Below are positions 50,631-64,000 of a stretch of DNA of 64,000 nucleotides, piece after piece. Position 1 is the first letter of the stretch; each line of letters begins with the position of its first letter. Source of the DNA: Minisyncoccota bacterium (lineage in GTDB: Bacteria; Patescibacteriota; Minisyncoccia; Phycocordibacterales; PALSA-1337); contig JBAZBL010000006.1 of NCBI GenBank assembly GCA_041671485.1, positions 6,539 to 70,538 of the forward strand, read 5' to 3'. A program made the translations under genes and the position numbers. The notes beneath the pieces were generated by a model, which was not told the origin of the DNA, made no database searches, and saw only the letters and a program-made list of their open reading frames with translations.

Positions 50631-51218
50631 ATGGAATCAGAACTAAAATTACCTGCAATAGACTATGCACCATTCATCCAATCTACTAGTAAAACCATAG
50701 TCAATAGTTATCCATCTGCTGTCGAGACAGCAAAAGATATTGGAGGTATATTGATAGGAATATGTATACCATTATCAGTTTTTTTTCTTATAGTTATAGT
50801 CTATTGTGTCGAACAATTGAAAAGGATTAGGAATAAAGAAGCAGAAATGTTCGATCTCAAAGTTGTGCCGATATACGAAAAGAATACAGGGTCAAATCCT
50901 GGCATGGTAAAGCGTTGGGAAAGTGCAAAGATCCATATTGCTTCAAATAATCCAAATGATTGGCGTCAAGCAATAATTGATGCAGATATTATCTTGGATG
51001 AAATCTTGACTCAAATGGGCTATCAGGGCCAAACAGTCGGAGACAAGTTGAAGAGGGTTGCAAAAGGAGATTTCAATACTCTAAATGATGCTTGGGAAGC
51101 ACATAAAGTGAGAAATATGATTGCCCATGAAGGATCTAGTTTTTCCTTGAATGAAAACGATGCAAAAAGCGCTTTCAGTGCCTATAAAAGGGTATTTGAA
51201 GAGTTTTATTATGTGTAG
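50631..51218 (+). CDS. Membrane-anchored protein with a C-terminal HEPN-like (DUF4145-type) domain
   Basis: N-terminal TM helix ILIGICIPLSVFFLIVIVY. C-terminus AWEAHKVRNMIAHEG fits the Rx4H HEPN motif of the DUF4145 family. Confidence 0.45.
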   Translation: MESELKLPAIDYAPFIQSTSKTIVNSYPSAVETAKDIGGILIGICIPLSVFFLIVIVYCVEQLKRIRNKEAEMFDLKVVPIYEKNTGSNPGMVKRWESAKIHIASNNPNDWRQAIIDADIILDEILTQMGYQGQTVGDKLKRVAKGDFNTLNDAWEAHKVRNMIAHEGSSFSLNENDAKSAFSAYKRVFEEFYYV

Positions 51219-51268
51219 TTAGTAAAAATATCCTTGAAATTCTGATGGATTTATGATAATTTTTTTCA

Positions 51269-51625
51269 ATGGAACCGAAATTAGATCCAGTAGAGTATTG
51301 TAAATTATTAAGTTCAACTATTCGAACCGCTTATAATGCTATAGGTCGGGTATCCTGCCAGATTTTGCAGAAGAATGTGGTTTTTAACGCAAAGGGATTT
51401 CACCTTCCCCTAGCTGTTGCAGTTGTGAGAAATGCAACAGCGATTGATGAAGAACGAGAGGTGATAATTTCTAAAAAAAGAAAAAAAGGCGCAAAGAGAG
51501 TTAAGGCGAAACAGTATGCATTGGTTGCCACGGTTGGTAGAAATAATCCTGTTAGGGTGAGAGTAATTGTTATGGAAGTAGAAAATAGTCAAAATCCTAT
51601 CTTTTGGAGCATAATGAGGGACTAA
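51269..51625 (+). CDS. Hypothetical protein with a Lys/Arg-rich segment
   Basis: 118-aa ORF followed by the hairpin terminator aaaaaccacgatcatttgtggttttttt (about 51627-51655). Confidence 0.4.
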   Translation: MEPKLDPVEYCKLLSSTIRTAYNAIGRVSCQILQKNVVFNAKGFHLPLAVAVVRNATAIDEEREVIISKKRKKGAKRVKAKQYALVATVGRNNPVRVRVIVMEVENSQNPIFWSIMRD

Positions 51626-52095
51626 AAAAACCACGATCATTTGTGGTTTTTTTAGTTGTGCCCGCTTTTCGACTTAAGATATATCTTTTGCCGAACAAGG
51701 CTTACGCCCACGGACACACTCATAGATTACACTATCACACGACATTTGTCAATACCGAAGTGAAAACTACAAGTGTACCCACAAGCTACATAAAGTATAC
51801 CTTAATAGTGAAGAAAAATTAAGGAAATTATTACTGTCAACTGTGGATAGTGATGATATACTGCGTACACGAAAATGTAAAGGGTTTAATATTTTGTTGC
51901 ACAGGTGAGACAGGATTGGAACCAGATTATGGAAAGCATTAGGGGATTGCATGAACTTTCCATTGAATCTCATGTGTAGTTTTTGAATTGTAATCAAATA
52001 GCGTAATGGTGCTTGATTTATAATGTCATATATGTTTGAATGGTTATCCACCCTACGGACTATGTCTATATGTCAGGGAGTGGTAAACTCATCAT

Positions 52096-52440
52096 ATGAA
52101 TATTCAAAGGCCTAAAAATACTAAAGAGCGTGGTACCATCGAATGTCTCGTATACAAAGATGGTGCTACTTATATTGGTGTCTGTCTAACTTTTGATATT
52201 GTAGAGGAAGGTAGTAACCCAACTGAACTGATGAAAAGTATTAAGGAAGCTGCCGAACTGCATCTTGAAACGGTAATACGGGAAAATCTATCTGATGACC
52301 TTTTGAATCGGTATGCTCCTGAAGACTACTGGAAAAAGTATTTTGCAGTTGCAAGAGAAATTGAGAAACCTTCAATAACAAGCACAAACAATCTAACTGT
52401 ATCCCCTTACTATCGTTCTCTAACGGCTCAGATGGCATAA
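52096..52440 (+). CDS. hicB: HicB-family antitoxin
   Basis: YIGVCLTFDIVEEGSNPTELMKSIKEAAELHLE matches the HicB/UPF0150 N-domain. GGGAG Shine-Dalgarno upstream. Confidence 0.65.
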   Translation: MNIQRPKNTKERGTIECLVYKDGATYIGVCLTFDIVEEGSNPTELMKSIKEAAELHLETVIRENLSDDLLNRYAPEDYWKKYFAVAREIEKPSITSTNNLTVSPYYRSLTAQMA

Positions 52441-52441
52441 A

Positions 52442-52681
52442 ATGGCAAAAGGTCTGAATAACTGGTGTTATAAAGACATCTGTGATTTTTTGAAAGAACA
52501 TGGGTTTGAGTTTCTTGAATATCGTAAGGGGTCTCATGAGGCTTGGATTAATCGTACTACCAATGCAGTCGTGGAAATAAACGTCCATGGCTCGAAGAGT
52601 TTTGCTATCCGAACCCTTGAGACAATGATTCGTCAATCTAAAATTGATAAAAAAGAGTGGCGCGACTGGACTACATATTAG
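52442..52681 (+). CDS. hicA: HicA-family mRNA interferase toxin
   Basis: DICDFLKEHGFEFLEYRKGSHEAW...VVEINVHGSK is the HicA/YcfA fold signature. Starts 2 nt after hicB. Confidence 0.65.
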   Translation: MAKGLNNWCYKDICDFLKEHGFEFLEYRKGSHEAWINRTTNAVVEINVHGSKSFAIRTLETMIRQSKIDKKEWRDWTTY

Positions 52682-52766
52682 GAGTTATCTTATGTTGATT
52701 TTGGTATCCTACCTTTACGCTATATGCACTATTACTCAAAATATATGGTAAAATATAGCTATCTAT

Positions 52767-53168
52767 ATGGCTATGACACTAGAAAAAGCAATAACTTTGG
52801 TAGGAAATTATAGGAAAGCGGGTTTTAAGGCTGGCCAAGCTCTTCTAGATACGGGCTATAGTGAAAGCATGGCTCTGAAGAAGTCTGGGGTCACTCTAGA
52901 TCGTGCATATAAGGCTATTGCCAAACATGACCTAGAAACGGCTCTTGAGAGTCCAAATCCGGCACAAGAGTTGTTCCGATTCATTAAGATGAGTGAGTAT
53001 GACATTGTTAGGGAGTACAGAGAGATCATTATGCAGAATGATAACTTTGCCGTAAAACTAAAAGCCTTGACACCTCTGTTGTCGGAGATGGGTATACAGT
53101 GGAATAACGATGCGGGTAAAACCTCAGCTGTTCCGACACTTAATCTTACTGTTTGCAAATTATTATAA
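52767..53168 (+). CDS. Small HTH protein resembling phage terminase small subunits / phage regulators
   Basis: GNYRKAGFKAGQALLDTGYSESMALKKSG resembles the Terminase_2 N-terminal HTH (..AAIRAGYS..TA...G). Weak. Confidence 0.3.
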   Translation: MAMTLEKAITLVGNYRKAGFKAGQALLDTGYSESMALKKSGVTLDRAYKAIAKHDLETALESPNPAQELFRFIKMSEYDIVREYREIIMQNDNFAVKLKALTPLLSEMGIQWNNDAGKTSAVPTLNLTVCKLL

Positions 53169-53278
53169 CTCCAAATAAGAGGGGTGGGGGTAGTCGGTTT
53201 TGATATTTGATATGTGAACGCAAGAAGGGGGTCAGGCGCAAAATCTTCAAAAATAATCAGTTTCCAAGATCACGTCAA

Positions 53279-54073
53279 TCAAATTGAAAACTTTGGGTTA
53301 ATGAGGTACTTCTTGAACGAATTATACAGCCTTAGAACCTCATCCTTTGGTACGCCAGCATCCTCGATAGTCTTTAGTTGAAAGTTACCTTCATCATCGG
53401 CATCGCTAACCCATGCCCGTAATATTCGATCTGGTTTATCTGCAAATAACAGGAAAATATCATAACCCTGACCGATATGTTTGAAGATGGCAAAAGGAGT
53501 AAATCGACTTCTATAGTATGCCTCATCAAAACCATCTAGTCCAAATGTAGTGTCAGAAACAATATGGCATTGTCTCGTCATGTTTTCTGAAAAAATAGAA
53601 ATTTCCTTTCCACTAATATAATCATCAAAGGTTTTTCGTAAAAAAATTACCGGTGGTCTTTTGATTGACTCTTCTTCAAAACCATCTAGATCATCGGCAG
53701 ACAGCTCCACGGCATGATCCGGTATAACAGCTTCTCCGTTAGTTAACTCTTGCAATTTTGTTGGGAAGGATCGAGTGGCTAGGGTTGATGGTGCATCGAA
53801 TTCAAGATTAGGATCAACAGAACTCCCAAACTTACTGATTATTTCCCTCTGCCTATTTTGGAAAGCCAAATAGACGGTAAATTTACATGCTTCATTATTT
53901 AGGCACTCTTCATGTGATAATTTAGAGTAGTCCCTGTCTAGATTAACCTCTTCGCAGGCGGCTTCAGGAATTGATGTTTGATTAGTTATATCTCTTGTGC
54001 CTAAAACAAAATAAGCTCCCACTGCAAAAACAACTATAACAATGGTTATCAAAATACATGGTTTGTTTATCAT
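53279..54073 (-). CDS. Hypothetical membrane-anchored protein (264 aa)
   Basis: N-terminal TM helix ILITIVIVVFAVGAYFVL. No known motif. Last gene of a four-gene minus-strand cassette. Confidence 0.45.
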   Translation of the reverse strand: MINKPCILITIVIVVFAVGAYFVLGTRDITNQTSIPEAACEEVNLDRDYSKLSHEECLNNEACKFTVYLAFQNRQREIISKFGSSVDPNLEFDAPSTLATRSFPTKLQELTNGEAVIPDHAVELSADDLDGFEEESIKRPPVIFLRKTFDDYISGKEISIFSENMTRQCHIVSDTTFGLDGFDEAYYRSRFTPFAIFKHIGQGYDIFLLFADKPDRILRAWVSDADDEGNFQLKTIEDAGVPKDEVLRLYNSFKKYLINPKFSI

Positions 54074-54103
54074 AATGATACTGTTTTACTAATCTTCATA
54101 AGA

Positions 54104-54523
54104 TTATTTCATTACCTTCGGTTTCCAGTCAATAATTGGTTTTTCAGTATTCCATCTATCTAGTCCCTCAAGCTCAGGCATATAGTTTATATCGGTAATC
54201 ATTTTGTATGCTCCTTTTTTACAAATCATTACCCATAATCTTGGCATGAAGATGGAAAAAACCTTTGCATAACTTTTCAATTGTTTTTTACTCCAGAGAA
54301 TCAATATTTCTTGATCGGCAACCCTTTTTCTGAAAGCTTCCGAAAGATTGTGGAAGTCTACTTTATGGGTGATGAATCCAGTTATTTCCATCGGTAATTT
54401 ATTGCATTCTAAAACAACCGACGCGTAGGGGAGAAGATTATTTCCACTTGAAGATAATGGAGTAAAACTAATTACTCTACAAATTTCACCATCAATTTTT
54501 TTCCAATCTTTATTTTTTAACAT
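54104..54523 (-). CDS. Hypothetical protein (139 aa)
   Basis: ORF in tandem, with tight spacing, to neighbouring genes in the cassette. Confidence 0.45.
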   Translation of the reverse strand: MLKNKDWKKIDGEICRVISFTPLSSSGNNLLPYASVVLECNKLPMEITGFITHKVDFHNLSEAFRKRVADQEILILWSKKQLKSYAKVFSIFMPRLWVMICKKGAYKMITDINYMPELEGLDRWNTEKPIIDWKPKVMK

Positions 54524-54545
54524 GTTATTATAGTAGATTTCAATT

Positions 54546-54737
54546 CTAGGAATTTTTCATTGATGAAGATAAGGAGACTACAATAAACTCCGATATTCCT
54601 CCATAAACAAACAGTTTTAACCCAAATTCACGTAGAAAGTCTGAAGACCATATTGGTGCGGAGGTTTCTGCAAAGGCAATACCAGCAACGATGACAATCA
54701 CTAGAATAAAGACTTGCTTTGAAGTAAATGTTTTCAT
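54546..54737 (-). CDS. Small secreted/membrane peptide (63 aa)
   Basis: Signal-peptide-like N-terminus VFILVIVIVAGIAFAETSA. Confidence 0.35.
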   Translation of the reverse strand: MKTFTSKQVFILVIVIVAGIAFAETSAPIWSSDFLREFGLKLFVYGGISEFIVVSLSSSMKNS

Positions 54738-54806
54738 GTTATATTGGCTATAGTTATCGAGGGTATAGCGAGTATCAATATAACTCCAGACAGGAATGAC
54801 AGTATT

Positions 54807-55127
54807 TTACTTGTTTTCATGTTTCACATTAATTAAAAAATTAATCAGCTCATCTTTTGTCTTAAATCTTTTTATGATATCTACTGCAATTTGCTCTATC
54901 GGGCTACCAATAAAGTTTGTTCTTAATACAGGAAAACTTTTTTCAATAAAAGAAGCATTATCACATCTCCAAATAAGTCGCGGAAATATTATTAGGAAGT
55001 GGTCGTATATCTTTATTCCGTTAGATGAATTGCCAATGGTCACTTTCTCTCTACTGTCTAAAAGTACTTCAAATCCACTCGGGTATGTTGATGTACTGTC
55101 TTGAAATTTATGAATTATTCTACCCAT
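54807..55127 (-). CDS. Hypothetical protein (106 aa)
   Basis: First gene of the minus-strand cassette, divergent from ORF 55377. Confidence 0.4.
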   Translation of the reverse strand: MGRIIHKFQDSTSTYPSGFEVLLDSREKVTIGNSSNGIKIYDHFLIIFPRLIWRCDNASFIEKSFPVLRTNFIGSPIEQIAVDIIKRFKTKDELINFLINVKHENK

Positions 55128-55139
55128 TTTAATATTTAA

Positions 55140-55275
55140 GCAAAAAGCCCATCACGGGTAGAGTCCGAAGACTCTCATACAAGTTTCCCTGTATGGCGGA
55201 TTACGCGACCCCATGATGGGTTCTTTATGCGTAATCCGACTTCCTTTCGCCATGCCCCAAAAAGAGGTTTAGGCT
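55140..55275. other. About 135-nt densely structured non-coding region (candidate ncRNA or replication/recombination site)
   Basis: Nested stems gagtc cgaa gactc, ggattacgc...gcgtaatcc, cccatgatggg and atggcg...cgccat. Lies between the divergent cassette and ORF 55377. Confidence 0.3.
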
Positions 55276-55376
55276 ATTTCTAAATATTCAGTTGTAAGTT
55301 AAGCATACAACTCCGTTTAGATATTGTCGAGGTTAATCTAGTGTGTAAAATCTTTGAAAGGTGCTAGCTTATAAGT

Positions 55377-56027
55377 ATGAGAACTGCTGCTTCTGTTTCA
55401 GGTCGTGTCAAGACTCGATCTCGCAAGATAGCTCAAAAATTGATTCTTGATCATCTTATTATTTTGAATAGTAATAGACTTTGGAAATCTTGTTTCTATC
55501 GTAATAGGATAGGTGTGAAAGGTTGGCGAGCTAGAAGAATTGTAAGAATACCGTCACCAAAATCATATAATTGGTTGAAGACCTATTTGGAAAATACTAA
55601 AGGAGAAATAATAACATTATCTGAAGGTGGATATTCTTTTGTACCTATTCCAGAGGGATATCTCATAATTAATGATAGAGGTGAAAACTTTAATATAAAA
55701 AGATTCAAGGCAAGAAAAAATTTCAGTTTGTTTTTATACAGACTTTTTGCTCTTTCTGTTCTTCGGCCAGCTTATGAAGAGTATGAAAAAAAGGAAGCAA
55801 GAAAGAATAGCTACGAAAGGATAGTTGCAAAATCAAAAGAATGCTCGGCTAAGGAGACTCTATCATTTGGAAATACAAGAATTACTGTAGTGCACACAAA
55901 CAAAATGAAAAGAGTTGAGCCTAAAATCATAGGTATCGAAAGTCAATTTGTTAAAAAATTTTGGGATGGAAGCTATGAAGATTATAAAAAATTTAGACTG
56001 AAAGTGAGGAAAGAAGGTCTGATTTGA
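55377..56027 (+). CDS. Hypothetical basic protein (216 aa)
   Basis: Arg/Lys-rich N-terminus. No recognisable domain. Upstream of the replication gene. Confidence 0.45.
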   Translation: MRTAASVSGRVKTRSRKIAQKLILDHLIILNSNRLWKSCFYRNRIGVKGWRARRIVRIPSPKSYNWLKTYLENTKGEIITLSEGGYSFVPIPEGYLIINDRGENFNIKRFKARKNFSLFLYRLFALSVLRPAYEEYEKKEARKNSYERIVAKSKECSAKETLSFGNTRITVVHTNKMKRVEPKIIGIESQFVKKFWDGSYEDYKKFRLKVRKEGLI

Positions 56028-56183
56028 GAGTGTCCAAATGTTTCCCTGTTGCTGATATTATCACGCGTAAAATTATTATAGCGTGTTTTTTTGTTTAGGA
56101 AAAATTGCTGCAAAAGTCCATTGTGCGCTGGGCTGGTGTAGAAGCAGCAATCTCTACCAGTCAAGCGCAGAGTGGATTTTTTT

Positions 56184-56324
56184 ATGCTAACCATCAATGA
56201 ATGTAAAAAATATCTCAGTTCAGAGATTATAGAGAAGACAACTGACGAAAATATTTTACAAATTCGTGATGCGTTATACAAGCTGGCCGAGCTTGCATTA
56301 GAAACATTAAATAACAAAAAATAA
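56184..56324 (+). CDS. Small ORF (46 aa), possible regulator/excisionase-like helper
   Basis: MLTINECKKYLSSEIIEKTTDENILQIRDALYKLAELALETLNNKK. Ends 2 nt before the primase-polymerase gene. Not in the ORF track because it is shorter than 60 aa. Confidence 0.25.
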   Translation: MLTINECKKYLSSEIIEKTTDENILQIRDALYKLAELALETLNNKK

Positions 56325-56325
56325 T

Positions 56326-58158
56326 ATGCAAAAATCAGATGTCAATTTATTAGAGATAGCGTTACAGTATTTAAGTTTTGGTCTATCTATAATACCTGTA
56401 AACGGAAAACAGCCGTGCGTAAAGTGGACAGAATACCAAACAAGGAAACCGACTATAGCAGAAATAACTGAATGGTTTTCACATCCGGATGTGACTGGAA
56501 TAGGGATAATTACAGGTTTGATTTCAGGGATTGGCGTTCTGGATATTGATAATGGATCTGACACATCAAGTCTTCAGTTACCGCCTACAGTTGCCGTTAA
56601 AACTGGAGGTGATGGTCAACATCACTACTATAGGTATCCCTTCAATACGGTCATCAGAAATACAACTGGATTACTACCACATATAGATTTCAGAGGTGAC
56701 GGGGGTTATGTTGTCGCGCCACCATCGATGCACCAATCTGGAAATAAATATGAATGGTTGTTGGACTTTAAGCGCGAGGATTTGGCTGATATTCCTGATT
56801 GGCTTCTAACCCGCTTGGTTGGTGAAAAGAGTCATCCGAACATCACGGATATATTAAGTGGCGTCTCTCAAGGGACTAGAAATGAGTCGGCGACAGTGAT
56901 TGTTGGGAAACTGATTCATCATTTGCCATCCTACGAATGGGAAACTTTAGCATGGCCTTACCTTAGATGGTGGAATGATCGAAATCAACCACCACTAGGT
57001 ATGAAGGAGCTTCGTGTTACATATGAATCTATTATTGGCAGAGAAAATAAGAAAGAGCAAAAGCAAGAACAGACACTAAAGATATTACAGTGGAAAGATT
57101 TTGATCAAGTGAAATTTCCCGAAGCGAAGTGGTTAATAAAAGACCTAATACCGACAGGAACTGTCACTATTATTGCCGCCCCATCGGGGGAAAAGAAAAC
57201 ATGGGTGGGTATGGAGATGTCTCGTTGTATAGCTCTCGGTATACCCTTTATCAACCACTTCGAAACGAAAAAGGGTAATGTATTATATATAGAGCAAGAA
57301 ACATCCCAACGCCTAATTCAAGATCGAGGTAGAAAGTTAGGATTCAATCTTGTGAATGATGGTATTTTCCTTCTTAGCCAAGATTCACTTAATTTGAATG
57401 AAGATCGTTCGATACAGTTGTTACATGAGTTTATCGAGAGAAATCATATAGAGTTTGTGGTTATCGATACGCTTAGAAGTGTTGCGGGTGGGATAAAAGA
57501 AGAAAAAGCAGAGGAAATAAGGATGTTCTTTAATCGTCTAAAGCCGTGGAAGGATAAGGGTATAAGCTATTTAGTCCTTGATCACTGTAGAAAGCCTGCA
57601 AGATTTGAGAGTACACAGGTGCCTAAAAAGGAGCAACTACTTGGAAGCCAAGACAAAACAGCCTCCGTTGAGGTGCTTCACATGATAAGAAGTGAGGAAA
57701 AAAGTAATGAGATAATGTTCTACCCAAAGAAATCTAAAGTTGCAAGGGAAATATCCCCGTTCAAAATTTTGATGTTAGATGAAATCACCGAACACGGTGA
57801 GGTTGTGAGGTTGACATATGGCGGAGAGATTGAAGAAAAAAAGTTGAAAGCAGAGGAGGCGGAAGGCATGATAAAAGCATATCTACTGGAATCCAATGAG
57901 CATAGAACATCTAAAGAGATTCAGGAGGCTCTGGACGGAGAAGCTGGGAAGACTGCCATCGAAGATGCGCTTAAAAAAATGCGAGAAGACAAGGAGAATA
58001 TTGTCCATCATGAAAAAGTTGGTCAAGCGTATAAATATTGGATACCAAAAGATAAACCAGATGAGCTTGATATATTTGATGAGGTTCCTAAGTCTGATTT
58101 AGGAAGTCCGCAGACGCTGCTATTAGAAGCTTCAACTGAGCCACAAATTGCTGCCTAG
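56326..58158 (+). CDS. Bifunctional primase-polymerase (Prim-Pol) N-domain fused to a P-loop RecA/DnaB-like ATPase (mobile-element replication protein)
   Basis: Prim-Pol motifs GIGIITGL..GIGVLDIDNGSD and DFRGDGGYVVAPPS. Walker A AAPSGEKKTW. AAA_25-like region VVIDTL. Confidence 0.8.
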   Translation: MQKSDVNLLEIALQYLSFGLSIIPVNGKQPCVKWTEYQTRKPTIAEITEWFSHPDVTGIGIITGLISGIGVLDIDNGSDTSSLQLPPTVAVKTGGDGQHHYYRYPFNTVIRNTTGLLPHIDFRGDGGYVVAPPSMHQSGNKYEWLLDFKREDLADIPDWLLTRLVGEKSHPNITDILSGVSQGTRNESATVIVGKLIHHLPSYEWETLAWPYLRWWNDRNQPPLGMKELRVTYESIIGRENKKEQKQEQTLKILQWKDFDQVKFPEAKWLIKDLIPTGTVTIIAAPSGEKKTWVGMEMSRCIALGIPFINHFETKKGNVLYIEQETSQRLIQDRGRKLGFNLVNDGIFLLSQDSLNLNEDRSIQLLHEFIERNHIEFVVIDTLRSVAGGIKEEKAEEIRMFFNRLKPWKDKGISYLVLDHCRKPARFESTQVPKKEQLLGSQDKTASVEVLHMIRSEEKSNEIMFYPKKSKVAREISPFKILMLDEITEHGEVVRLTYGGEIEEKKLKAEEAEGMIKAYLLESNEHRTSKEIQEALDGEAGKTAIEDALKKMREDKENIVHHEKVGQAYKYWIPKDKPDELDIFDEVPKSDLGSPQTLLLEASTEPQIAA

Positions 58159-58309
58159 TTTCCTAGTACATATATATGTTATGATTACAATGCTACACAA
58201 GGGATTAGGGACGTTATTTATTTTAATTGAGTCCAAAAGCGGGGTAACAGAACTCTCTTGTGTAGCAACTTGAGACGTCCACTGTTACCCCACTTTTGTA
58301 ATTAAAAAT

Positions 58310-59851
58310 ATGAAAAAAGGAATTATATATGTTCGAGTATCATCGAACGAACAAGTACAAGGTACAAGTCTCGATAATCAAGAGAGGGCTTGTTTGGAAT
58401 ATGCGGAGAAAAATAATATTGAGGTGGTAAAGATTTATATTGAGAAAGGGGAATCGGCAACTGCCGCCAATCGTACCGAATTTCTGAAGGCACTGGAGTA
58501 TTGTCGAATACATAGTAAAGAGGTGGAGTCTTTCATTGTTTGGAAGATCGATCGCTTCGCCCGTAATACCACAGACCATTTTGCAGTCCGCGCTAAACTA
58601 ACTCAGTACGGTGTTACTCTCCAATCAGTTACTGAACCAATCACAAATGATCCTAGCGGTAAACTGATGGAGACACTTCTTGCTGGATATGCAGAATTTG
58701 AAAACGATATACGTAAGCAGAGGTGTATTGGTGGCATGCAAGGCAGATTACGTGAGGGAATCTGGTGCTGGTCGCCTCCAATAGGGTATACAAACTCTAT
58801 GAAGATGAAAGACAGAAAGAAAACCTTACCGGATGTTCCGGATGAAGAAAGATTCTACCTGATTCAAAAGGGATTAAAACTATATAAAGCCGGCAATCAC
58901 ACTATTACAGCTCTTGCCCAAGAGAGTAGTAAATGGGGACTTAAAACTCGAACTGGTAGGCCAATGAGAAAACAGTTATGGGATACTATTCTCACCAATA
59001 AATTCTATGCTGGTATCCTCGTCGATCCGTGGAGCCTTGAAGAACAACAAGGACAACATAAGCCTATGATTACTTTAGAAGATTTCAATCACATCCAGAT
59101 GATAAAAAAGAATTTGTCCAACAACGCCACCGCTTCACGACTCTCTACCAATCCCGATTTTCCACTTCGCCGTTTTGTGTTATGTGAATGTCATCATCTC
59201 TATACCGCCTCGTGGAGTACCGGCCGAAGTAAAAAATATGCCTCTTACCACTGTCACGGCAAGCAATGCGTACATTTTGGTCACACTGTTGCCAAAGATA
59301 CGCTCGAAGATGAATTCTATAAGCTTTTACAAAAGGTAGCTCCACAGACTAAGTTCCTTAAACTGTTTGAACGGATCGTTATAGAGACCTATAAAAACCA
59401 ACATACTCTTGTTAAGCAGGAAAAGGATCACTATGAGCGAAATCTATCCAAGTTGGAAGCACGTAAGAAAGAATTGATGGAAATGAGAATAAGCCGTGAG
59501 ATTTCAAAGGAAGACTATAAAGATCTTAAAGATGCTTTGGATAATCAGATTACCAGTCTCCATATCTCAAGAAATGAAGCTCAGATAGAAGAATTTGATA
59601 TGGAGATCGCTATAGCTCACACTACGAAGCTGATCGGTGATGTTGCCAATCAATGGAAGCTTATGAGTCCGATTCAGAAGCAAAAACTTCAGAAATTGGT
59701 GCTACCACAAGGGATCACCTACCAAAAATCGACCGGTACATTTGGAACCGCCATTCTGTCGCCTGTATTCAAGCTTAATGAGACATTTACGGCTATGCCG
59801 TCCGAACTTGTTGCGGGGGTCGGAATCGAACCGACAATCTTCAGGTTATGA
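58310..59851 (+). CDS. Large serine recombinase (phage-integrase-type resolvase/invertase family)
   Basis: Catalytic N-domain IYVRVSSNEQ...DRFARN. Recombinase domain. Zinc ribbon CECHH...YHCHGKQC. Coiled-coil C-terminus. The last 41 nt overlap tRNA-fMet on the opposite strand. Confidence 0.85.
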   Translation: MKKGIIYVRVSSNEQVQGTSLDNQERACLEYAEKNNIEVVKIYIEKGESATAANRTEFLKALEYCRIHSKEVESFIVWKIDRFARNTTDHFAVRAKLTQYGVTLQSVTEPITNDPSGKLMETLLAGYAEFENDIRKQRCIGGMQGRLREGIWCWSPPIGYTNSMKMKDRKKTLPDVPDEERFYLIQKGLKLYKAGNHTITALAQESSKWGLKTRTGRPMRKQLWDTILTNKFYAGILVDPWSLEEQQGQHKPMITLEDFNHIQMIKKNLSNNATASRLSTNPDFPLRRFVLCECHHLYTASWSTGRSKKYASYHCHGKQCVHFGHTVAKDTLEDEFYKLLQKVAPQTKFLKLFERIVIETYKNQHTLVKQEKDHYERNLSKLEARKKELMEMRISREISKEDYKDLKDALDNQITSLHISRNEAQIEEFDMEIAIAHTTKLIGDVANQWKLMSPIQKQKLQKLVLPQGITYQKSTGTFGTAILSPVFKLNETFTAMPSELVAGVGIEPTIFRL

Positions 59852-59882
59852 GCCTGACGAGCTACCGTTACTCTACCCCGCG
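59811..59882 (-). tRNA. Initiator tRNA-fMet (anticodon CAT)
   Basis: Cloverleaf with a C1·A72 mismatch and an A11:U24 pair, both initiator hallmarks. Anticodon loop CUCAUAA. T-arm GTCGG TTCGATT CCGAC. Close to E. coli tRNA-fMet. Confidence 0.85.
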
Positions 59883-59984
59883 ATGTTCTAACTATTTTGC
59901 CACAATTGATGTAGTTGCGCAAGTGAATAAATTTAGATATTGTATAGCTTGAGTATTAGACATGGTTTTTGCTCGATATTCAAT

Positions 59985-60058
59985 GCCGGCGTAGCTCAGG
60001 TAGTTAGAGCATAGCACTCATAAAGCTAAGGTCGCAGGTGCAAGTCCTGCCGCCGGCA
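59985..60058 (+). tRNA. tRNA with anticodon CAT (elongator Met or lysidine-modified Ile2)
   Basis: Acceptor GCCGGCG/CGCCGGC. Anticodon loop CUCAUAA. One A·A mismatch at 31-39. Confidence 0.7.
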
Positions 60059-60185
60059 CAATAGTTTTCGTCAGTATCTTGACTTTCGTAGAATATTTTT
60101 GCTAGAGTATCTTTAATACTTGCTTGCGACCGATGGAGTTGCGCCCAGATCGGTCTATCGCAGAAGCGATGGTGAGCACTATGAC

Positions 60186-60214
60186 AAGCCCCTTACGGGG
60201 CTTGTGCGCTTTTT
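60186..60214 (+). terminator. Rho-independent terminator after the CAT tRNA
   Basis: aagcccc ttac ggggctt followed by gtgcgctttttg. Confidence 0.5.
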
Positions 60215-60281
60215 GTTGATTTTATCCATTACACTAAAGAAGTGTTTGTGACCATTATTCAATTGTGGTATTTTTCTAGTA

Positions 60282-60965
60282 ATGCCAATATACAAAAAGG
60301 TTAATAAAGATTTTTTCAAAGTATGGACTCCAAAGATGTCATATATACTGGGATTCTTTGCTGCTGACGGTTATATGACTCTAAACAAAAGAGGTGCTTA
60401 TTTTTGGAATATTCAAATTACAGACAAAAAATTATTAGAGGATATCAGACGAACAATTGGATCCAATCATAAAATCAGTGTTCGTATTGGAAAAGTGAAT
60501 GAAAGACCTTTGTATCGTTTACAGATTGGTAGCAAGAAAATGTACTATGATCTATTGGCTTTAGGATTTAATCAGGGAAAAACAAAGAGTTTGGCTGTTC
60601 CAAATGTTCCAGCAATATATTTTAGAGATTTTGTCAGAGGTTATTTTGATGGTGATGGTAATGTTTGGAGCGGACATATTCATCGCAATAGACCTAGTAA
60701 TACATTGATTATTACTGTGGTATTTACTTCCAGTTCATTTCAATTTTTATCGGAAATAAGGCGAAGATTACGATTGTTTATGATATTTAAAGGAGTTTTA
60801 AGTAAGGGGAAAGGTAATTATTATAGGTTAGTTTACAGTATTCGTGACTCTTTGAAATTACACGATTTCATGTATAATCATCCTATACTTGCAAAGGATG
60901 ACATTTTTCTTCAAAGGAAGAGAATTATATTCGAGAAGTACTTAAAGATACGAATGCGGCCGTAG
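60282..60965 (+). CDS. LAGLIDADG homing endonuclease (double-motif)
   Basis: Two LAGLIDADG motifs, LGFFAADGYM and GYFDGDGNV. The TAG stop overlaps the first 10 nt of tRNA-Asp. Confidence 0.85.
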   Translation: MPIYKKVNKDFFKVWTPKMSYILGFFAADGYMTLNKRGAYFWNIQITDKKLLEDIRRTIGSNHKISVRIGKVNERPLYRLQIGSKKMYYDLLALGFNQGKTKSLAVPNVPAIYFRDFVRGYFDGDGNVWSGHIHRNRPSNTLIITVVFTSSSFQFLSEIRRRLRLFMIFKGVLSKGKGNYYRLVYSIRDSLKLHDFMYNHPILAKDDIFLQRKRIIFEKYLKIRMRP

Positions 60966-61029
60966 CGAAACTGGTTATCGCACCGCCCTGTCACGGCGGG
61001 GATTGCGGGTTCGAGTCCCGTCGGCCGCG
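60956..61029 (+). tRNA. tRNA-Asp (GTC)
   Basis: Anticodon loop CUGUCAC. T-arm GCGGGTTCGAGTCCCGT identical to E. coli tRNA-Asp. Discriminator G. Confidence 0.9.
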
Positions 61030-61106
61030 CATAGGAAATCACTCAACATTCTGTTTTATTACGTCCACCAAAAGAGTGCTATAATTCACCATAGAAAGAG
61101 GTTCAT

Positions 61107-61535
61107 ATGAGAACGTTAACAATGCTAGTTGCAGTGATCAGTTTCACTCTATTTGCCAATGCTGGCGAAAAGAGATCTGGGCTGGAGGGTGAGATGCCCA
61201 ATAGCTTGACGAATCACATTCTCGCAGTCGAGATGTCCAAAGGTGGGTCTTTGGAACCAATTGACACAAAAGATTTCCACAATATGATCATTCAGTACTT
61301 GGTAAGAATGAATACGAATGAGACTTTTGGTCCTTTGTGGAAAGGTATGGAATTTGAATCCGAAAGTTTCTACATCGGCTGGAAGCAGGGCCGAGATGAA
61401 TTTCGGTTCAACTTCCTGCCAGTGACAAGACGAGGATTTCGAGCGGGTGGTATGATAGTCAGTGAATATCCGCTTGCACCAAACAATCTTCGAGATTGTT
61501 ACTTTGTCGGTCTATTTGTCTCGCGACATTTTTGA
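61107..61535 (+). CDS. Hypothetical secreted protein (142 aa), markedly higher GC
   Basis: Signal peptide MRTLTMLVAVISFTLFANA. Followed by the terminator gcggtcgtgttcggaacacgaccgc plus a T-run. Confidence 0.45.
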   Translation: MRTLTMLVAVISFTLFANAGEKRSGLEGEMPNSLTNHILAVEMSKGGSLEPIDTKDFHNMIIQYLVRMNTNETFGPLWKGMEFESESFYIGWKQGRDEFRFNFLPVTRRGFRAGGMIVSEYPLAPNNLRDCYFVGLFVSRHF

Positions 61536-61562
61536 GGACTAGCGAGACAGGGTGGGGAAGAT

Positions 61563-61596
61563 GCGGTCGTGTTCGGAACACGACCGCTTTTATTTC
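61563..61596 (+). terminator. Rho-independent terminator
   Basis: gcggtcgtg ttcggaa cacgaccgc then ttttatttc. Confidence 0.6.
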
Positions 61597-61673
61597 GATT
61601 GAAAAGCTGTGATTTCTGTATTATGATGCAATGACTGCCAATGTAACTCTTTTGGTGGTAGATATATAAATAT

Positions 61674-61746
61674 GCCAAGATAGCTCAGTTGGTAGAGCAC
61701 GCCATTGGTAATGGCGAGGTCCCGAGTTCAATCCTCGGTCTTGGCT
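61674..61746 (+). tRNA. tRNA-Thr (GGT)
   Basis: Anticodon loop UUGGUAA. Canonical cloverleaf close to E. coli tRNA-Thr(GGU). Confidence 0.9.
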
Positions 61747-61851
61747 CCCCACTCCGCCTCACCCCTTATGGGTTGAGGCTTCGCGGGGCAAGCCCACAAT
61801 GTAGTTGTGCTTGCACCGCGAAGCTCCGACTGGAAGGAGGAGCGAAGTGGT

Positions 61852-61924
61852 GCCAAAGTAGCTCAGTTGGTAGAGCATCGCTTTCGTAAAGCGAGGGTCC
61901 CCGGTTCGATCCCGGGCTTTGGCT
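61852..61924 (+). tRNA. tRNA-Thr (CGT)
   Basis: Anticodon loop UUCGUAA. Canonical cloverleaf. Separated from the first Thr tRNA by a GC-rich structured 105-nt spacer. Confidence 0.9.
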
Positions 61925-61966
61925 CAAAATAGATCAAAGATAAAAGGTCAAAGATCAAAAATATAG

Positions 61967-62866
61967 ATGGACAAAGAGAAAATACAAAAGAAAATAGCAG
62001 AGCTCGAAAGTGCAATGAATGCACAGGACTTTTGGTCTGATAAAGTAAAAGCACAAAATGTAATTAGCGAAATAAAGAAACTCAAAGAGGATCTCGAAGG
62101 TGTAGGTAAATATGATAAAGGTGATGCTATATTATCTGTCCTCTCTGGCGCTGGTGGCGATGATGCAGAAGATTTTTCTCAAATGCTTGTTAGGATGTAT
62201 AACAAATATTCTGATTCAAACAATTGGGTTTGGTCTGTAATTCATTCAAATGAGAATGATCATGGTGGATATAGGAATATAACAGTAGAAATCTCTGGAG
62301 GTCTGACCTCCGTAGGTTTGGGTCCATATGGCATATTGAAGAATGAATCTGGAGTACATCGCTTGGTACGAATTTCGCCATTCAATGCAAATGATAAAAG
62401 GCATACATCTTTCTCTATGGTAGAAGTATTGCCAAAGTTTGAAAAGACTTCTTCTCATGATATTGTCATTTCAGATAATGATATAGAGATATCTATTGCA
62501 AAGTCAGGAGGTCCAGGAGGCCAGAATGTAAACAAACGCGAGACGGCAGTACGGATATTGCATAGACCAACAGGTATATCTATACACGTTACGTCAGAAC
62601 GCTCACAAGCTCAAAACCGTGAAAAAGCCATGGATATTCTACGAGCAAAACTGTGGAAGCGTATGGAAGATGTGAGGATAGCAAAAGAGAAGGGTATGCA
62701 AATATCTTCTACTACATCTATAGAATGGGGCAATCAGATAAGGTCATATGTATTGCATCCGTACAAAATGGTAAAGGATCATAGGACAGAGTATGAGACA
62801 AATCAGGTTGATAAAGTATTGAATGGTGATATAGAAGCATTTATCGATGCAGAAAAGATGCTATAA
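61967..62866 (+). CDS. prfB: Peptide chain release factor 2 (N-terminally short; no programmed frameshift site)
   Basis: SPF tripeptide (RF2-specific) and GGQ motif. Begins 42 nt after tRNA-Thr, so there is no room for an upstream frame-0 segment. Confidence 0.85.
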
Positions 62867-62874
62867 TTAGTTGA

Positions 62875-63555
62875 ATGATATATTACGATAAAGTCACAAA
62901 GATCTATCCAGACCACTCTGTAGCACTAGAAGATGTAACTTTTGGTGTTGAACCCAAAGAATTTGTCACAATCGTCGGTCATTCTGGTGCTGGCAAAACA
63001 ACATTGATGAAACTTCTTATTGGAGAAGATAGACCAACAAATGGCATTGTCTTCTTCGAATCATCTGATATTCATAGATTGAATAAAAGGGATATGAGCA
63101 AGATAAGAAGAAGGATTGGTACAATATTTCAGGATTATAGGCTAATACCATCAAAGACAGTATATGAGAATATTGCTTTTGCCATGGAAGCAGCAGGTAG
63201 GAAAGATGATGAAATATCAGCCGATGTACCTCATGTACTTGAGCTCGTTGATCTAGCCCGTAAGATATGGAATTTCCCACATGAATTGTCAGGGGGCGAA
63301 AGACAGCGCGTAGCTATTGCTCGAGCAATAGTCAATCAACCAGATATAGTTATTGCCGATGAACCAACGGGCAATTTGGATCCGTCAAATACTTTTGAAA
63401 TTGCAAGAATTTTGAAAAAGATAAATGAATTGGGTACGACTGTCATACTCACTACTCACAATAAAGGCATGGTTGATGCTATAGGAGGTAGGATTATCAC
63501 CATGGAAAGGGGTAAAGTAGTCAAAGACAGTAAAGATGGCAAGTATTTGTTATAG
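62875..63555 (+). CDS. ftsE: Cell-division ABC ATPase FtsE
   Basis: Walker A GHSGAGKTT, ABC signature LSGGERQR, Walker B IVIADEPTGNLD. Confidence 0.9.
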   Translation: MIYYDKVTKIYPDHSVALEDVTFGVEPKEFVTIVGHSGAGKTTLMKLLIGEDRPTNGIVFFESSDIHRLNKRDMSKIRRRIGTIFQDYRLIPSKTVYENIAFAMEAAGRKDDEISADVPHVLELVDLARKIWNFPHELSGGERQRVAIARAIVNQPDIVIADEPTGNLDPSNTFEIARILKKINELGTTVILTTHNKGMVDAIGGRIITMERGKVVKDSKDGKYLL

Positions 63556-63590
63556 ATCAAAGATTAAAAATCAAAAATCAAAAATTATCA

Positions 63591-64000
63591 ATGTTTACTA
63601 TTCTCAAACGTATAACTAAGACAGGCTTTGTAAATTTCTGGCGTAATGGCTTTTTGTCATTTGCAGCGATTGTAGTCATCACATTGTCTCTTTGTGCTTT
63701 TGGAGCGCTTATATTTGGTAGTGCATTTGGTAGGTCATTCCTGAATGATATAAAAGAAAAAGTTGATATAAATGTTTACTTTACTCTATCAACACCAGAA
63801 TCCGATATAGTTGCTCTCAAAAAAGATATAGATGCTCTGCCAGAAGTAGCAAAAACAGAATATATATCAAGAGGTATGGCTCTTGCTACATTCAAGCAAA
63901 AATGGCAAGACAATGCTCTTATAATGCAAGGACTAGATGAAATAGGTGACAATCCTTTCCCAGCATCTATAAATATAAAAGCAATTGATCCAGGGCAATA
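63591..64000 (+). CDS. ftsX: Cell-division permease FtsX (5' part; continues beyond the window)
   Basis: Open frame to the window end. N-terminal TM helix LSFAAIVVITLSLCAFGALIFG then a periplasmic domain. Directly downstream of ftsE. Confidence 0.75.
   Translation, partial: MFTILKRITKTGFVNFWRNGFLSFAAIVVITLSLCAFGALIFGSAFGRSFLNDIKEKVDINVYFTLSTPESDIVALKKDIDALPEVAKTEYISRGMALATFKQKWQDNALIMQGLDEIGDNPFPASINIKAIDPGQ

Follow-up and report, generated by a model that had tools for sequence, protein, structure and literature searches.

A free-standing LAGLIDADG homing endonuclease gene overlapping tRNA-Asp in Paceibacteria, and the tRNA-Asp gene as its candidate target

A 64 kb stretch of contig JBAZBL010000006.1 (GCA_041671485.1; hereafter the window, to whose positions all coordinates refer) contains a homing endonuclease gene (HEG) of the LAGLIDADG type that is real and free-standing, in a Paceibacteria genome of the Candidate Phyla Radiation (CPR) type. 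The family to which this gene belongs resides at one chromosomal place in Paceibacteria, with tRNA-Met upstream of it and the single tRNA-Asp gene directly on its 3' side. Comparison of related loci points to the tRNA-Asp gene itself, from the D-loop to the anticodon loop, rather than the spacer, as the putative cleavage target. We consider it probable, though well short of certain, that the gene is a selfish free-standing HEG for which the tRNA-Asp gene is the target of intronless or collaborative homing, and that in many relatives an operator mimics this target. The window copy is an intact, ordinary member of the family, from a sub-clade with neither the operator nor an intron.

The window gene encodes a monomeric LAGLIDADG endonuclease

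The product of the window open reading frame (ORF) was matched over two stretches by Pfam LAGLIDADG_3 (PF14528; 53.8 bits as compared to a cutoff of 22.5), and LAGLIDADG domains were the only domains found by Pfam, with no helix-turn-helix (HTH). Both LAGLIDADG motifs were present (i.e. LGFFAADGY and RGYFDGDGN), as stated for this 227-aa protein in a first-pass annotation made from the DNA letters alone. The acidic residues that close the LAGLIDADG helices (D29 and D125) were invariant in a 25-member alignment, as were many beta-sheet residues (Y31, T33, N35, W42, Y78, R79, Q81, W129, T149, S150 and R182), and the catalytic motifs were conserved in 78 of 79 loci. LAGLIDADG homing endonucleases perform site-specific double-strand cleavage that leaves 4-nt 3' overhangs. 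Sequence similarity to solved LAGLIDADG enzymes was weak (E about 0.04-0.2). An AlphaFold (AF2) model based on 25 homologues had a predicted local distance difference test score (pLDDT) of 86.7 and a predicted template modelling score (pTM) of 0.86, and consisted of two alpha-beta-beta-alpha-beta-beta-alpha halves, i.e. the pseudo-dimeric fold in the expected order of elements. Foldseek matched this model with a probability of 1.00 to I-Tsp061I, I-AniI, I-DmoI, I-SceI and the I-OnuI family; the best structural matches, bI3 included, were all monomeric LAGLIDADG homing endonucleases or maturases. The NCBI annotation of the exact protein is LAGLIDADG family homing endonuclease, from a Candidatus Paceibacterota metagenome-assembled genome (MAG).

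The gene was single-copy within the window and was located in neither an intron nor an intein, having no Rfam intron match, its own start codon and no fusion to a host protein. A search of the surroundings (57000-64000) at both gathering and permissive thresholds (E <= 1) detected no Rfam family except tRNA. The earlier proposal of a free-standing endonuclease between two intact tRNAs was thus upheld, and the search for group I introns around the gene that had been suggested with that proposal found none in the window and no intron core.

The family has a fixed address next to tRNA-Asp

A protein search gave 2,801 homologues, and relatives were encoded in at least 481 species-representative genomes. 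Among the 120 matches listed, lengths were 204-270 aa (mostly ~225 aa), identities to the window protein were 55-75% and, where a source was named, it was a Paceibacteria group (e.g. Kaiser-, Taylor- or Yonathbacteria). Locus comparisons rest on 80 fetched loci of HEG relatives (individual loci, including further ones sampled separately, carry L-numbers), nearly all of which exhibited the order plus-strand tRNA-Met(CAT), ORF and tRNA-Asp. In 69 of 81 loci a plus-strand tRNA-Met preceded the ORF, the median gap being 81 nt; this tRNA is the cassette's conserved neighbour on the left and probably serves as its upstream homology arm. ARAGORN and Rfam located the same arrangement in the window, in agreement with the first-pass annotation. 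The wider neighbourhood, i.e. ligA-gatC-gatA-213-aa membrane protein-tRNAs-...-tRNA-Thr-tRNA-Thr-prfB-ftsE-ftsX, was shared by the window and approximately half of the loci.

The junction between the ORF and tRNA-Asp was examined across the family. The final 10 nt of the window ORF (GCGGCCGTAG) are positions 1-10 of tRNA-Asp, an overlap that had been noted previously and is borne out by the sequence; the closing codons ATG CGG CCG TAG fall on tRNA-Asp bases 1-10, such that U8-A9-G10 of the tRNA serves as the stop codon. The ORF ended inside tRNA-Asp in 63 of 77 intact loci, indicating that the overlap is not due to chance. This overlap was exactly 10 nt in 42 loci, with overlaps of 15, 21 or 23 nt also observed, and three reading registers are used. 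In four loci the junction was different: the end of the ORF copies the first 10-12 nt of tRNA-Asp and is followed by an insert of 61-82 nt (with tandem repeats in L009), after which the real tRNA-Asp opens with the same 12 nt (L029 4666-4748, L040 1132-1214, L034 1466-1570 and L009 1076-1400). These junctions look like a small insertion with target duplication.

Intact endonuclease genes avoid canonical uninterrupted tRNA-Asp

In 36 of the 80 loci (~45%), tRNA-Asp was split by a group I intron without an ORF, of 194-260 nt and inserted between U35 and C36 (CCUGU/...G/CACG). Rfam Intron_gpI matched one subtype at 82-91 bits, whereas the other subtype scored 47-53 bits (E about 1e-9 to 1e-11). 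The stop codon of the ORF lies ~25 nt upstream of the intron insertion site. No intron was present in the window tRNA-Asp. An intron-encoded endonuclease or maturase was rejected, as the ORF is in no group I intron: there is none in the window, and the intron of the relatives is downstream of the HEG ORF and has no ORF of its own.

The state of tRNA-Asp was then compared between loci (Table 1). An HEG was located beside a canonical uninterrupted tRNA-Asp in only 3 of the 80 loci, and the spliced exons were canonical in 24 of the 36 intron-bearing loci. Intron and intronless states were interleaved in the HEG tree. Of 11 sister pairs that differed in intron state, nine paired an intron-bearing member whose exons were canonical with an intronless member whose tRNA was a variant, and the reverse was never observed, indicating that this association does not arise from shared ancestry alone. 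The intronless variants were diverse and included a D-loop longer by one base (GGTTAGTAGC), a D-loop shorter by one base (CGGTAGAGC), GGTTAA, GGCTAA, C31U and others. The sole exception in the main clade (L017) was also the only one of 79 loci with a destroyed catalytic motif, motif 2 (FDGDGNVW) being replaced in frame by LSVKSIFQ. A dead enzyme that tolerates a canonical site is what the homing model predicts.

Table 1. State of the tRNA-Asp gene in 80 HEG-bearing loci with and without the operator motif
Operator motif	Loci	Intron	Intronless, 1 mismatch	Intronless, >= 2 mismatches	Canonical uninterrupted
Present	38	21	7	10	0
Absent	42	15	3	21	3 (L017, L051, L053)

The tRNA-Asp of the window differs from GGTTAG-N8-CCTGTCACG at one of the 15 specified positions (G22 to T, position 60978). 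This change is compensated in the D-stem (GCGA/TCGC), and an identical allele is present in the closest relative (L201). Possibly G22T is a self-immunity variant, and the window enzyme may still recognise the canonical site because it has the family-invariant beta-sheet residues; for the window, no link in the argument is weaker. The window grouped with L001, L002, L017 and L289-L292 (64-75% identity). The latter four loci have a short spacer (46-50 nt) with another conserved promoter-like element (cttttacaattaa in three of four), no tRNA-Asp mimic in the promoter, no intron in tRNA-Asp and variant tRNA-Asp alleles, i.e. GGCTAA, GGATAA, or GGTTTAG combined with UUGUCAA in the anticodon loop. 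In L289 (2169-2244), the tRNA-Asp with the UUGUCAA loop (U32, A38) and the D-loop GGTTTAG adjoins an intact endonuclease gene, and these two loop substitutions together are unusual for an essential single-copy tRNA.

An alternative function for the protein is that of a LAGLIDADG maturase, encoded beside its intron rather than inside it, that aids splicing of the group I introns of the tRNA cluster. Other tRNAs of this cluster carry introns in relatives and the structural neighbours of the protein include the bifunctional I-AniI and the bI3 maturase, as would be expected for such a role. The window, however, has no group I intron and yet its gene is intact and under purifying selection, 44 of the 80 HEG-positive loci have no intron in tRNA-Asp, and the catalytic residues are invariant. 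Furthermore, the introns (~200 nt) have the size of self-splicing tRNA introns and the promoter motif described below mimics exon DNA and not the intron. A maturase is considered very improbable.

A target-like motif is present in the promoter of many relatives

The short spacer before the ORF contained TGGTTAG-N8-CCTGTCACG-TGnTATAAT-N6-ATG/GTG in 38 of the 80 loci (operator scored as present at <= 2 mismatches), with exactly 15 nt between the end of the operator motif and the start codon. In canonical tRNA-Asp, GGTTAG is the D-loop block and CCTGTCACG the anticodon-loop block, at an identical 8-nt spacing; the operator copies matched 13-15 of the 15 specified bases of the tRNA-Asp site and included CCTGT/CACG, the sequence that the intron splits. 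The N8 of the promoter copy was promoter-like (TATAAT) and not tRNA-like. TGnTATAAT would represent an extended -10 element; located this close to the start codon, it would result in a leaderless or near-leaderless mRNA. Mimicry of the anticodon arm in RNA was rejected as the cause of this motif, since the proportion of paired cells (58%) did not exceed that of shuffles and no covariation was detected, indicating that the motif is conserved at the level of DNA sequence. Two similar blocks at a fixed spacing have the look of a mimic of a protein-binding site, as a decaying duplicate would be expected to lose similarity evenly. LAGLIDADG sites are about 22 bp in length and have two contacted half-sites and a tolerant centre in which cleavage occurs; the layout of GGTTAG-N8-CCTGTCACG would fit such a site.

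The best operator-like match upstream of the window gene had 6 mismatches and there was no other site in the 64 kb. The sequence TGgTATTTT of the window is the positional homologue of the TGnTATAAT-N6-start arrangement of the family, and a generic promoter scan of the window made no call at these positions (60266-60274).

The class-wide family, the introns in the tRNA-Asp of relatives and the promoter copy of tRNA-Asp sequence do not figure in the first-pass annotation, which had suggested that the endonuclease homes into the spacer between tRNA-Met and tRNA-Asp. In its favour, the cassette sits in exactly this spacer and empty sites exist. A related possibility is cleavage at the 5' junction of tRNA-Asp: the right junction is very precise, with the stop codon within tRNA-Asp bases 8-23, and the end of the ORF keeps the first 10-12 nt of tRNA-Asp even across a small insert. 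In either case insertion of the gene would destroy its own target, which is the commonest logic of HEGs, and no special tRNA-Asp allele would be needed. Spacer occupancy did prove to be a presence/absence polymorphism, and the comparison of spacings in relatives lacking the gene, proposed in the same annotation, gave 22-128 nt between two tRNAs at most empty sites. The spacer is however unlikely as a cleavage target: the empty spacers had no conserved sequence, which leaves the 5' end of tRNA-Asp as the only conserved candidate. The promoter mimic was missing from the empty spacers. A spacer or junction target also leaves three observations unexplained, i.e. that the promoter mimics the D-loop and anticodon loop, that intact HEGs hardly ever adjoin a canonical uninterrupted tRNA-Asp, and that the exception has a dead enzyme. 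We regard this explanation as unlikely and favour the tRNA-Asp gene as the target.

The gene is dispensable, patchily distributed and decays in close relatives

A metagenome scan for canonical uninterrupted tRNA-Asp yielded at least 120 loci, of which 18 clearly contained the same Paceibacteria tRNA pair. No HEG was found in any of the 120 canonical intronless loci listed, including the 18 empty sites of Paceibacteria type, although this sample was picked for the canonical allele, so that the significance of 0/18 depends on the overall frequency of the HEG, a limit that counts against the favoured explanation. A sample independent of the HEG was assembled from homologues of the 213-aa neighbour gene of the window. 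HEG-less members of this sample were L203 (spacer of 122 nt), L208 (76 nt) and the place for P0129. The closest relative of the window, L201, has a neighbour protein with 92% identity and an identical tRNA-Asp; it retains the leader (77% identical to that of the window) and the last ~30 codons with tRNA-Asp (84% identity), the rest of the ORF being unrelated sequence in which Pfam found no match. Disrupted ORFs were observed in L022, L054 and L074; some of these may reflect MAG assembly errors.

Purifying selection was detected on intact copies, with a ratio of non-synonymous to synonymous substitution (dN/dS) of about 0.07-0.12 among the clade mates of the window, the only set for which it was computable, as pairs including the window have saturated dS (pS > 0.75). 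Distances between HEGs had a floor of ~0.33-0.40, even where the host GatA differed by only 19-28%. For example, L014 and L019 differ by 19% in GatA and 5% in tRNA-Met but by 24% in tRNA-Asp and 40% in the HEG. Mantel tests of the HEG against gatA, the 213-aa neighbour and prfB gave r = 0.29-0.48, as compared to 0.53-0.82 for controls and -0.16 for ftsE (n = 14). The neighbour-joining tree of HEGs was poorly resolved, and co-phylogeny is not a decider because the tree is star-like and the distances are saturated. Selection on intact copies combined with frequent absence and with decay in close relatives is the classic signature of a homing endonuclease gene; purifying selection, patchiness and decay do not fit an essential host gene. 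The first-pass annotation had named a vertically inherited, non-mobile gene as an alternative to its proposal; position was indeed conserved, but the gene was patchy among close relatives and decayed in the closest.

These data also bear on whether the protein is a domesticated, mainly vertically inherited LAGLIDADG protein that is no longer mobile and has a host function, e.g. as a DNA-binding regulator of the tRNA operon. Such a function is consistent with the occupation of the same locus across many Paceibacteria lineages, the uniform length and 44-75% identity, a dN/dS of about 0.1 with saturated dS, the positive correlation with flanking genes, the conserved DNA motif in the gene's own promoter and the absence of the close family from viral contigs. 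On the other hand, the gene is missing from close relatives in which synteny is kept, most of it has been lost from the closest, there are many empty sites, both catalytic acidic residues are invariant, the canonical site is avoided beside intact copies and tolerated beside the copy with a dead motif 2, and HEGs are 35-40% divergent in closely related hosts. Domesticated LAGLIDADG regulators of the WhiA type have lost the catalytic acidic residues and gained an HTH domain; the family of the window retains the former and, according to Pfam, lacks the latter. A domesticated regulator is therefore improbable, and a selfish HEG is the preferred explanation.

A model for homing against tRNA-Asp

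In the model that we favour, the enzyme would recognise the canonical bacterial tRNA-Asp gene over ~23 bp, from the GGTTAG of the D-loop to the CCTGTCACG of the anticodon loop, and would cut in the variable middle of this site, between the two loops. The HEG-bearing chromosome would survive because its own tRNA-Asp is no substrate, owing to an intron or to a variant allele (G22 to T in the window). The break in a susceptible genome would be repaired from an HEG-positive copy, with the conserved tRNA-Met on one side and tRNA-Asp and downstream sequence on the other providing homology. As the HEG begins only ~20-30 bp from the break, it would be copied together with the resistant tRNA-Asp allele, and this co-conversion would amount to intronless homing, or to collaborative homing where resistance is conferred by an intron. 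L014 and L019, with a 5% difference in tRNA-Met and a 24% difference in tRNA-Asp, may represent an example. The non-cleaved copy of the target in the HEG promoter of many lineages probably serves as an operator for autorepression. Finally, co-transcripts would lose the stop codon when RNase P cleaves at tRNA-Asp +1, such that part of the mRNA would be non-stop and enzyme levels may be kept low.

Several observations weigh against this model. We infer cleavage specificity, binding, immunity, autorepression and the RNase P effect alike from comparison of loci. L051 and L053, of a distant clade, have intact HEGs beside canonical tRNA-Asp; these proteins have differing residues at the start of beta-strand 1, and their target specificity may differ. 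Ten intronless loci, the window included, differ from the canonical site by only one base, and many LAGLIDADG enzymes tolerate a mismatch at a single position, such that one-mismatch alleles may not be immune. The window copy has neither operator nor intron. Variant tRNA-Asp alleles are also carried by the HEG-less L203 and L208, and the D-loops of other tRNAs vary in these lineages, indicating that part of the diversity of tRNA-Asp alleles is background. Mantel tests based on tRNAs were likewise weak and do not discriminate. Class-wide conservation of position and the weakly positive correlation with flanking genes are compatible with substantial vertical inheritance.

Comparison with known systems

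Collaborative homing has been described for F-CphI, which is encoded beside an ORF-less psbA group I intron in cyanophage S-PM2, and for T4 mobE with the I-TevIII intron (Zeng, Bonocora and Shub 2009; Bonocora and Shub 2009; PMC3984707, PMC2790892, PMC6083498). The proposed tRNA-Asp system would resemble these cases in that the candidate recognition site spans the intron insertion site, such that the intron would protect the HEG genome and both would travel together. The differences are a LAGLIDADG enzyme as opposed to an Endo VII-like or HNH enzyme, a CPR chromosome as opposed to a phage and a tRNA gene as target; in addition, the intron is present in only ~45% of loci, with sequence variants in the rest, and there is none at the window locus.

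Intronless homing is known for free-standing endonucleases of T4, among them SegB, which is encoded between tRNA genes (PMC2988022; Brok-Volchanskaya 2008 cited there; intronless homing also in PMC3984707). An HEG in a tRNA cluster is a shared feature; under the proposed model, a target in the neighbouring tRNA region of HEG-less relatives, resistance of the HEG genome by polymorphism and co-conversion of flanking markers would be shared as well. SegB, however, is a GIY-YIG enzyme of a phage with a target between tRNA genes, whereas the enzyme described here is a LAGLIDADG protein encoded on a bacterial chromosome by an ORF that overlaps a tRNA, with a putative target in the body of tRNA-Asp.

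A precedent for the putative operator is I-TevI, whose operator overlaps its own promoter, matches the homing site at 15/20 positions and mediates autorepression (PMC2988022). A sequence resembling the candidate homing site is similarly located at the enzyme's own promoter in 38 of 80 relatives, with 13-15 of 15 specified bases and the same spacing. Unlike the present enzyme, I-TevI is an intron-encoded GIY-YIG protein with separable binding and catalytic domains, and the window copy lacks the motif. No LAGLIDADG autorepressor was found in the literature searched.

LAGLIDADG genes of CPR bacteria have been described inside rRNA insertions, with tRNA loci unmentioned (PMC11270868); these endonucleases of rRNA introns and insertions belong to the same superfamily and the same bacterial radiation. 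A second intron-encoded case has, as proposed here, an endonuclease aimed at the anticodon region of a tRNA that carries a group I intron. In contrast to both, the HEG described here is outside any intron, upstream of the exon and has its own promoter. A 2020 preprint reports new types of group I intron in tRNAs of unnamed phyla (10.1101/2020.01.27.920355). No description of an association between an HEG and tRNA-Asp was found in the literature searched. Relative to known systems, what is new would be the kind of enzyme, the cellular host, the use of a tRNA as target and a mixture of intron-based and variant-based immunity.

We propose, tentatively, that Paceibacteria carry a class-wide chromosomal gene-drive module consisting of a free-standing LAGLIDADG endonuclease and a tRNA-Asp allele that resists it. 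Should this hold, it would be the first case of collaborative homing in a cellular (i.e. non-phage) setting, extending over hundreds of lineages with stages that are susceptible, invaded with an intron, invaded with a variant tRNA, decayed or lost, and possibly the first LAGLIDADG enzyme to repress its own promoter through a target mimic. Endonuclease pressure would then maintain a tRNA intron and, in a tRNA that is essential and single-copy, diversify both the D-loop and the anticodon loop, and RNase P processing would generate a non-stop message that throttles a toxic enzyme. Ideas on where mobile group I introns come from, by convergence of a free-standing endonuclease and an ORF-less intron on one site, are now based on a handful of phage examples, as are those on the persistence of selfish nucleases that do not kill the host. 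An uncultivated bacterial class would offer hundreds of independent natural replicates at one essential tRNA gene, with states that can be read from sequence, and the family would provide a LAGLIDADG scaffold with a predictable 23-bp target. Such a module would also explain why tRNA-Asp is often missed or odd in CPR annotations (i.e. introns and unusual D- and T-loops), and would imply that a genomic parasite can drive tRNA sequence diversity. For the window alone, the result is more modest.

Other features of the window and of related loci

The features of the window are listed in Table 2. The leader upstream of the HEG folds more stably than shuffled sequence (z = -3.2), and the hairpins and terminator previously noted there were recovered. 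The minus-strand initiator-like tRNA(CAT), which is overlapped by the recombinase gene as the first-pass annotation had reported, is the first tRNA of the conserved cluster, and it likewise precedes the cluster in L201, L203, L208 and L289-L292.

Table 2. Positions of the features of the window
Feature	Positions	Strand	Remarks
HEG (free-standing, monomeric, two-domain LAGLIDADG homing endonuclease gene)	60282-60965	+	ATG start, TAG stop, 227 aa
tRNA-Met(CAT)	59985-60059	+	ARAGORN and Rfam tRNA, 63.5 bits
tRNA-Asp(GTC), uninterrupted	60956-61030	+	ARAGORN and Rfam tRNA, 67.2 bits
Candidate recognition region in tRNA-Asp	60973-60995	+	GGTTATCGCACCGCCCTGTCACG
Leader	60060-60281	+	222 nt, hairpins, unusually long for the family
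Terminator-like hairpin in leader	60184-60205		followed by T-run to ~60215
Putative extended -10 element TGgTATTTT	60266-60274	+	7 nt before ATG; assigned by homology only
Initiator-like tRNA(CAT)	59810-59882	-	C1:A72 mismatch; ARAGORN and Rfam tRNA, 66.1 bits
Large serine recombinase ORF	58310-59851		Pfam Resolvase and Recombinase; last 42 nt overlap 3' part of minus-strand tRNA(CAT)
Prim-Pol/AAA_25 protein	56326-58158		within probable mobile element
LOOT RNA	55160-55275	-	Rfam RF03000, 72.7 bits (gathering score 46.4); within inserted element
Probable integrated mobile element	~51220-59851		~8.6 kb
213-aa neighbour gene	50631-51218
142-aa ORF	61107-61535	+	N-terminal hydrophobic segment; between tRNA-Asp and two tRNA-Thr genes
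Strong terminator-like hairpin	61563-61587		after 142-aa ORF

The ~8.6 kb between the 213-aa neighbour gene and the minus-strand tRNA-fMet, which encodes the Prim-Pol/AAA_25 protein and the serine recombinase, is missing from the closest relative (L201), in which the neighbour gene and tRNA-fMet are 11 nt apart. This stretch is probably an integrated mobile element with tRNA-fMet as its attachment site; a search for attachment-type direct repeats of the inserted element found none that were convincing. Similar 513-aa recombinases were present in 6 related loci, and one adjoins tRNA-Thr in L208. The 142-aa ORF downstream of tRNA-Asp had no Pfam match and, among 80 related loci, was present only in the window.

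Distant relatives of the endonuclease were detected on at least 529 viral-contig stretches (IMG/VR). The 80 of these loci that were analysed (L209-L288) had 26-38% identity, mostly with ~200 or more residues covered, and one of the 80 was near tRNA genes; the intron core pattern had no match in viral contigs. A phage vector was rejected, as the viral contigs hold distant relatives only (<= 38% identity), with 1 of 80 near tRNAs.

The tRNA cluster is an intron hot spot. Group I introns were also located in tRNA-fMet (L021 3479-3779, L025 2762-3060 and L032 1634-1941) and in tRNA-Thr(GGT) (L014 6850-7107, L289 2308-2574 and L290 2263-2518); these introns of the other cluster tRNAs are ~180-236 nt long and lie in the anticodon loop, and the same tRNAs are uninterrupted in the window. 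An unusual T-arm of tRNA-Asp, GGGGTCAGCACCC replacing GGTTCRANTCC, was observed in L006, L008, L013-L016, L021, L025, L031, L033, L042 and L066, and intron-bearing tRNA-Asp copies with this T-arm escape ARAGORN. In loci with long spacers between tRNA-Met and the ORF (L010, L011, L040, L052 and L065), the first ~100 nt contain a terminator hairpin and then a degenerate tRNA-like segment (e.g. gtcggggagtcccaatgggtattgggacgtgtggggatcgaagccc), which may be the remnant of an integration event at tRNA-Met. A second ORF family of ~226 aa was present in the same tRNA clusters in 11 related loci, typically ~430 nt upstream of the endonuclease gene (e.g. L073 1622-2302). In its products, an HTH (Pfam HTH_38/HTH_23) is located at the N-terminus and the stretch GLGLYWGEGYK is LAGLIDADG-like; this family may represent another endonuclease-type insert.

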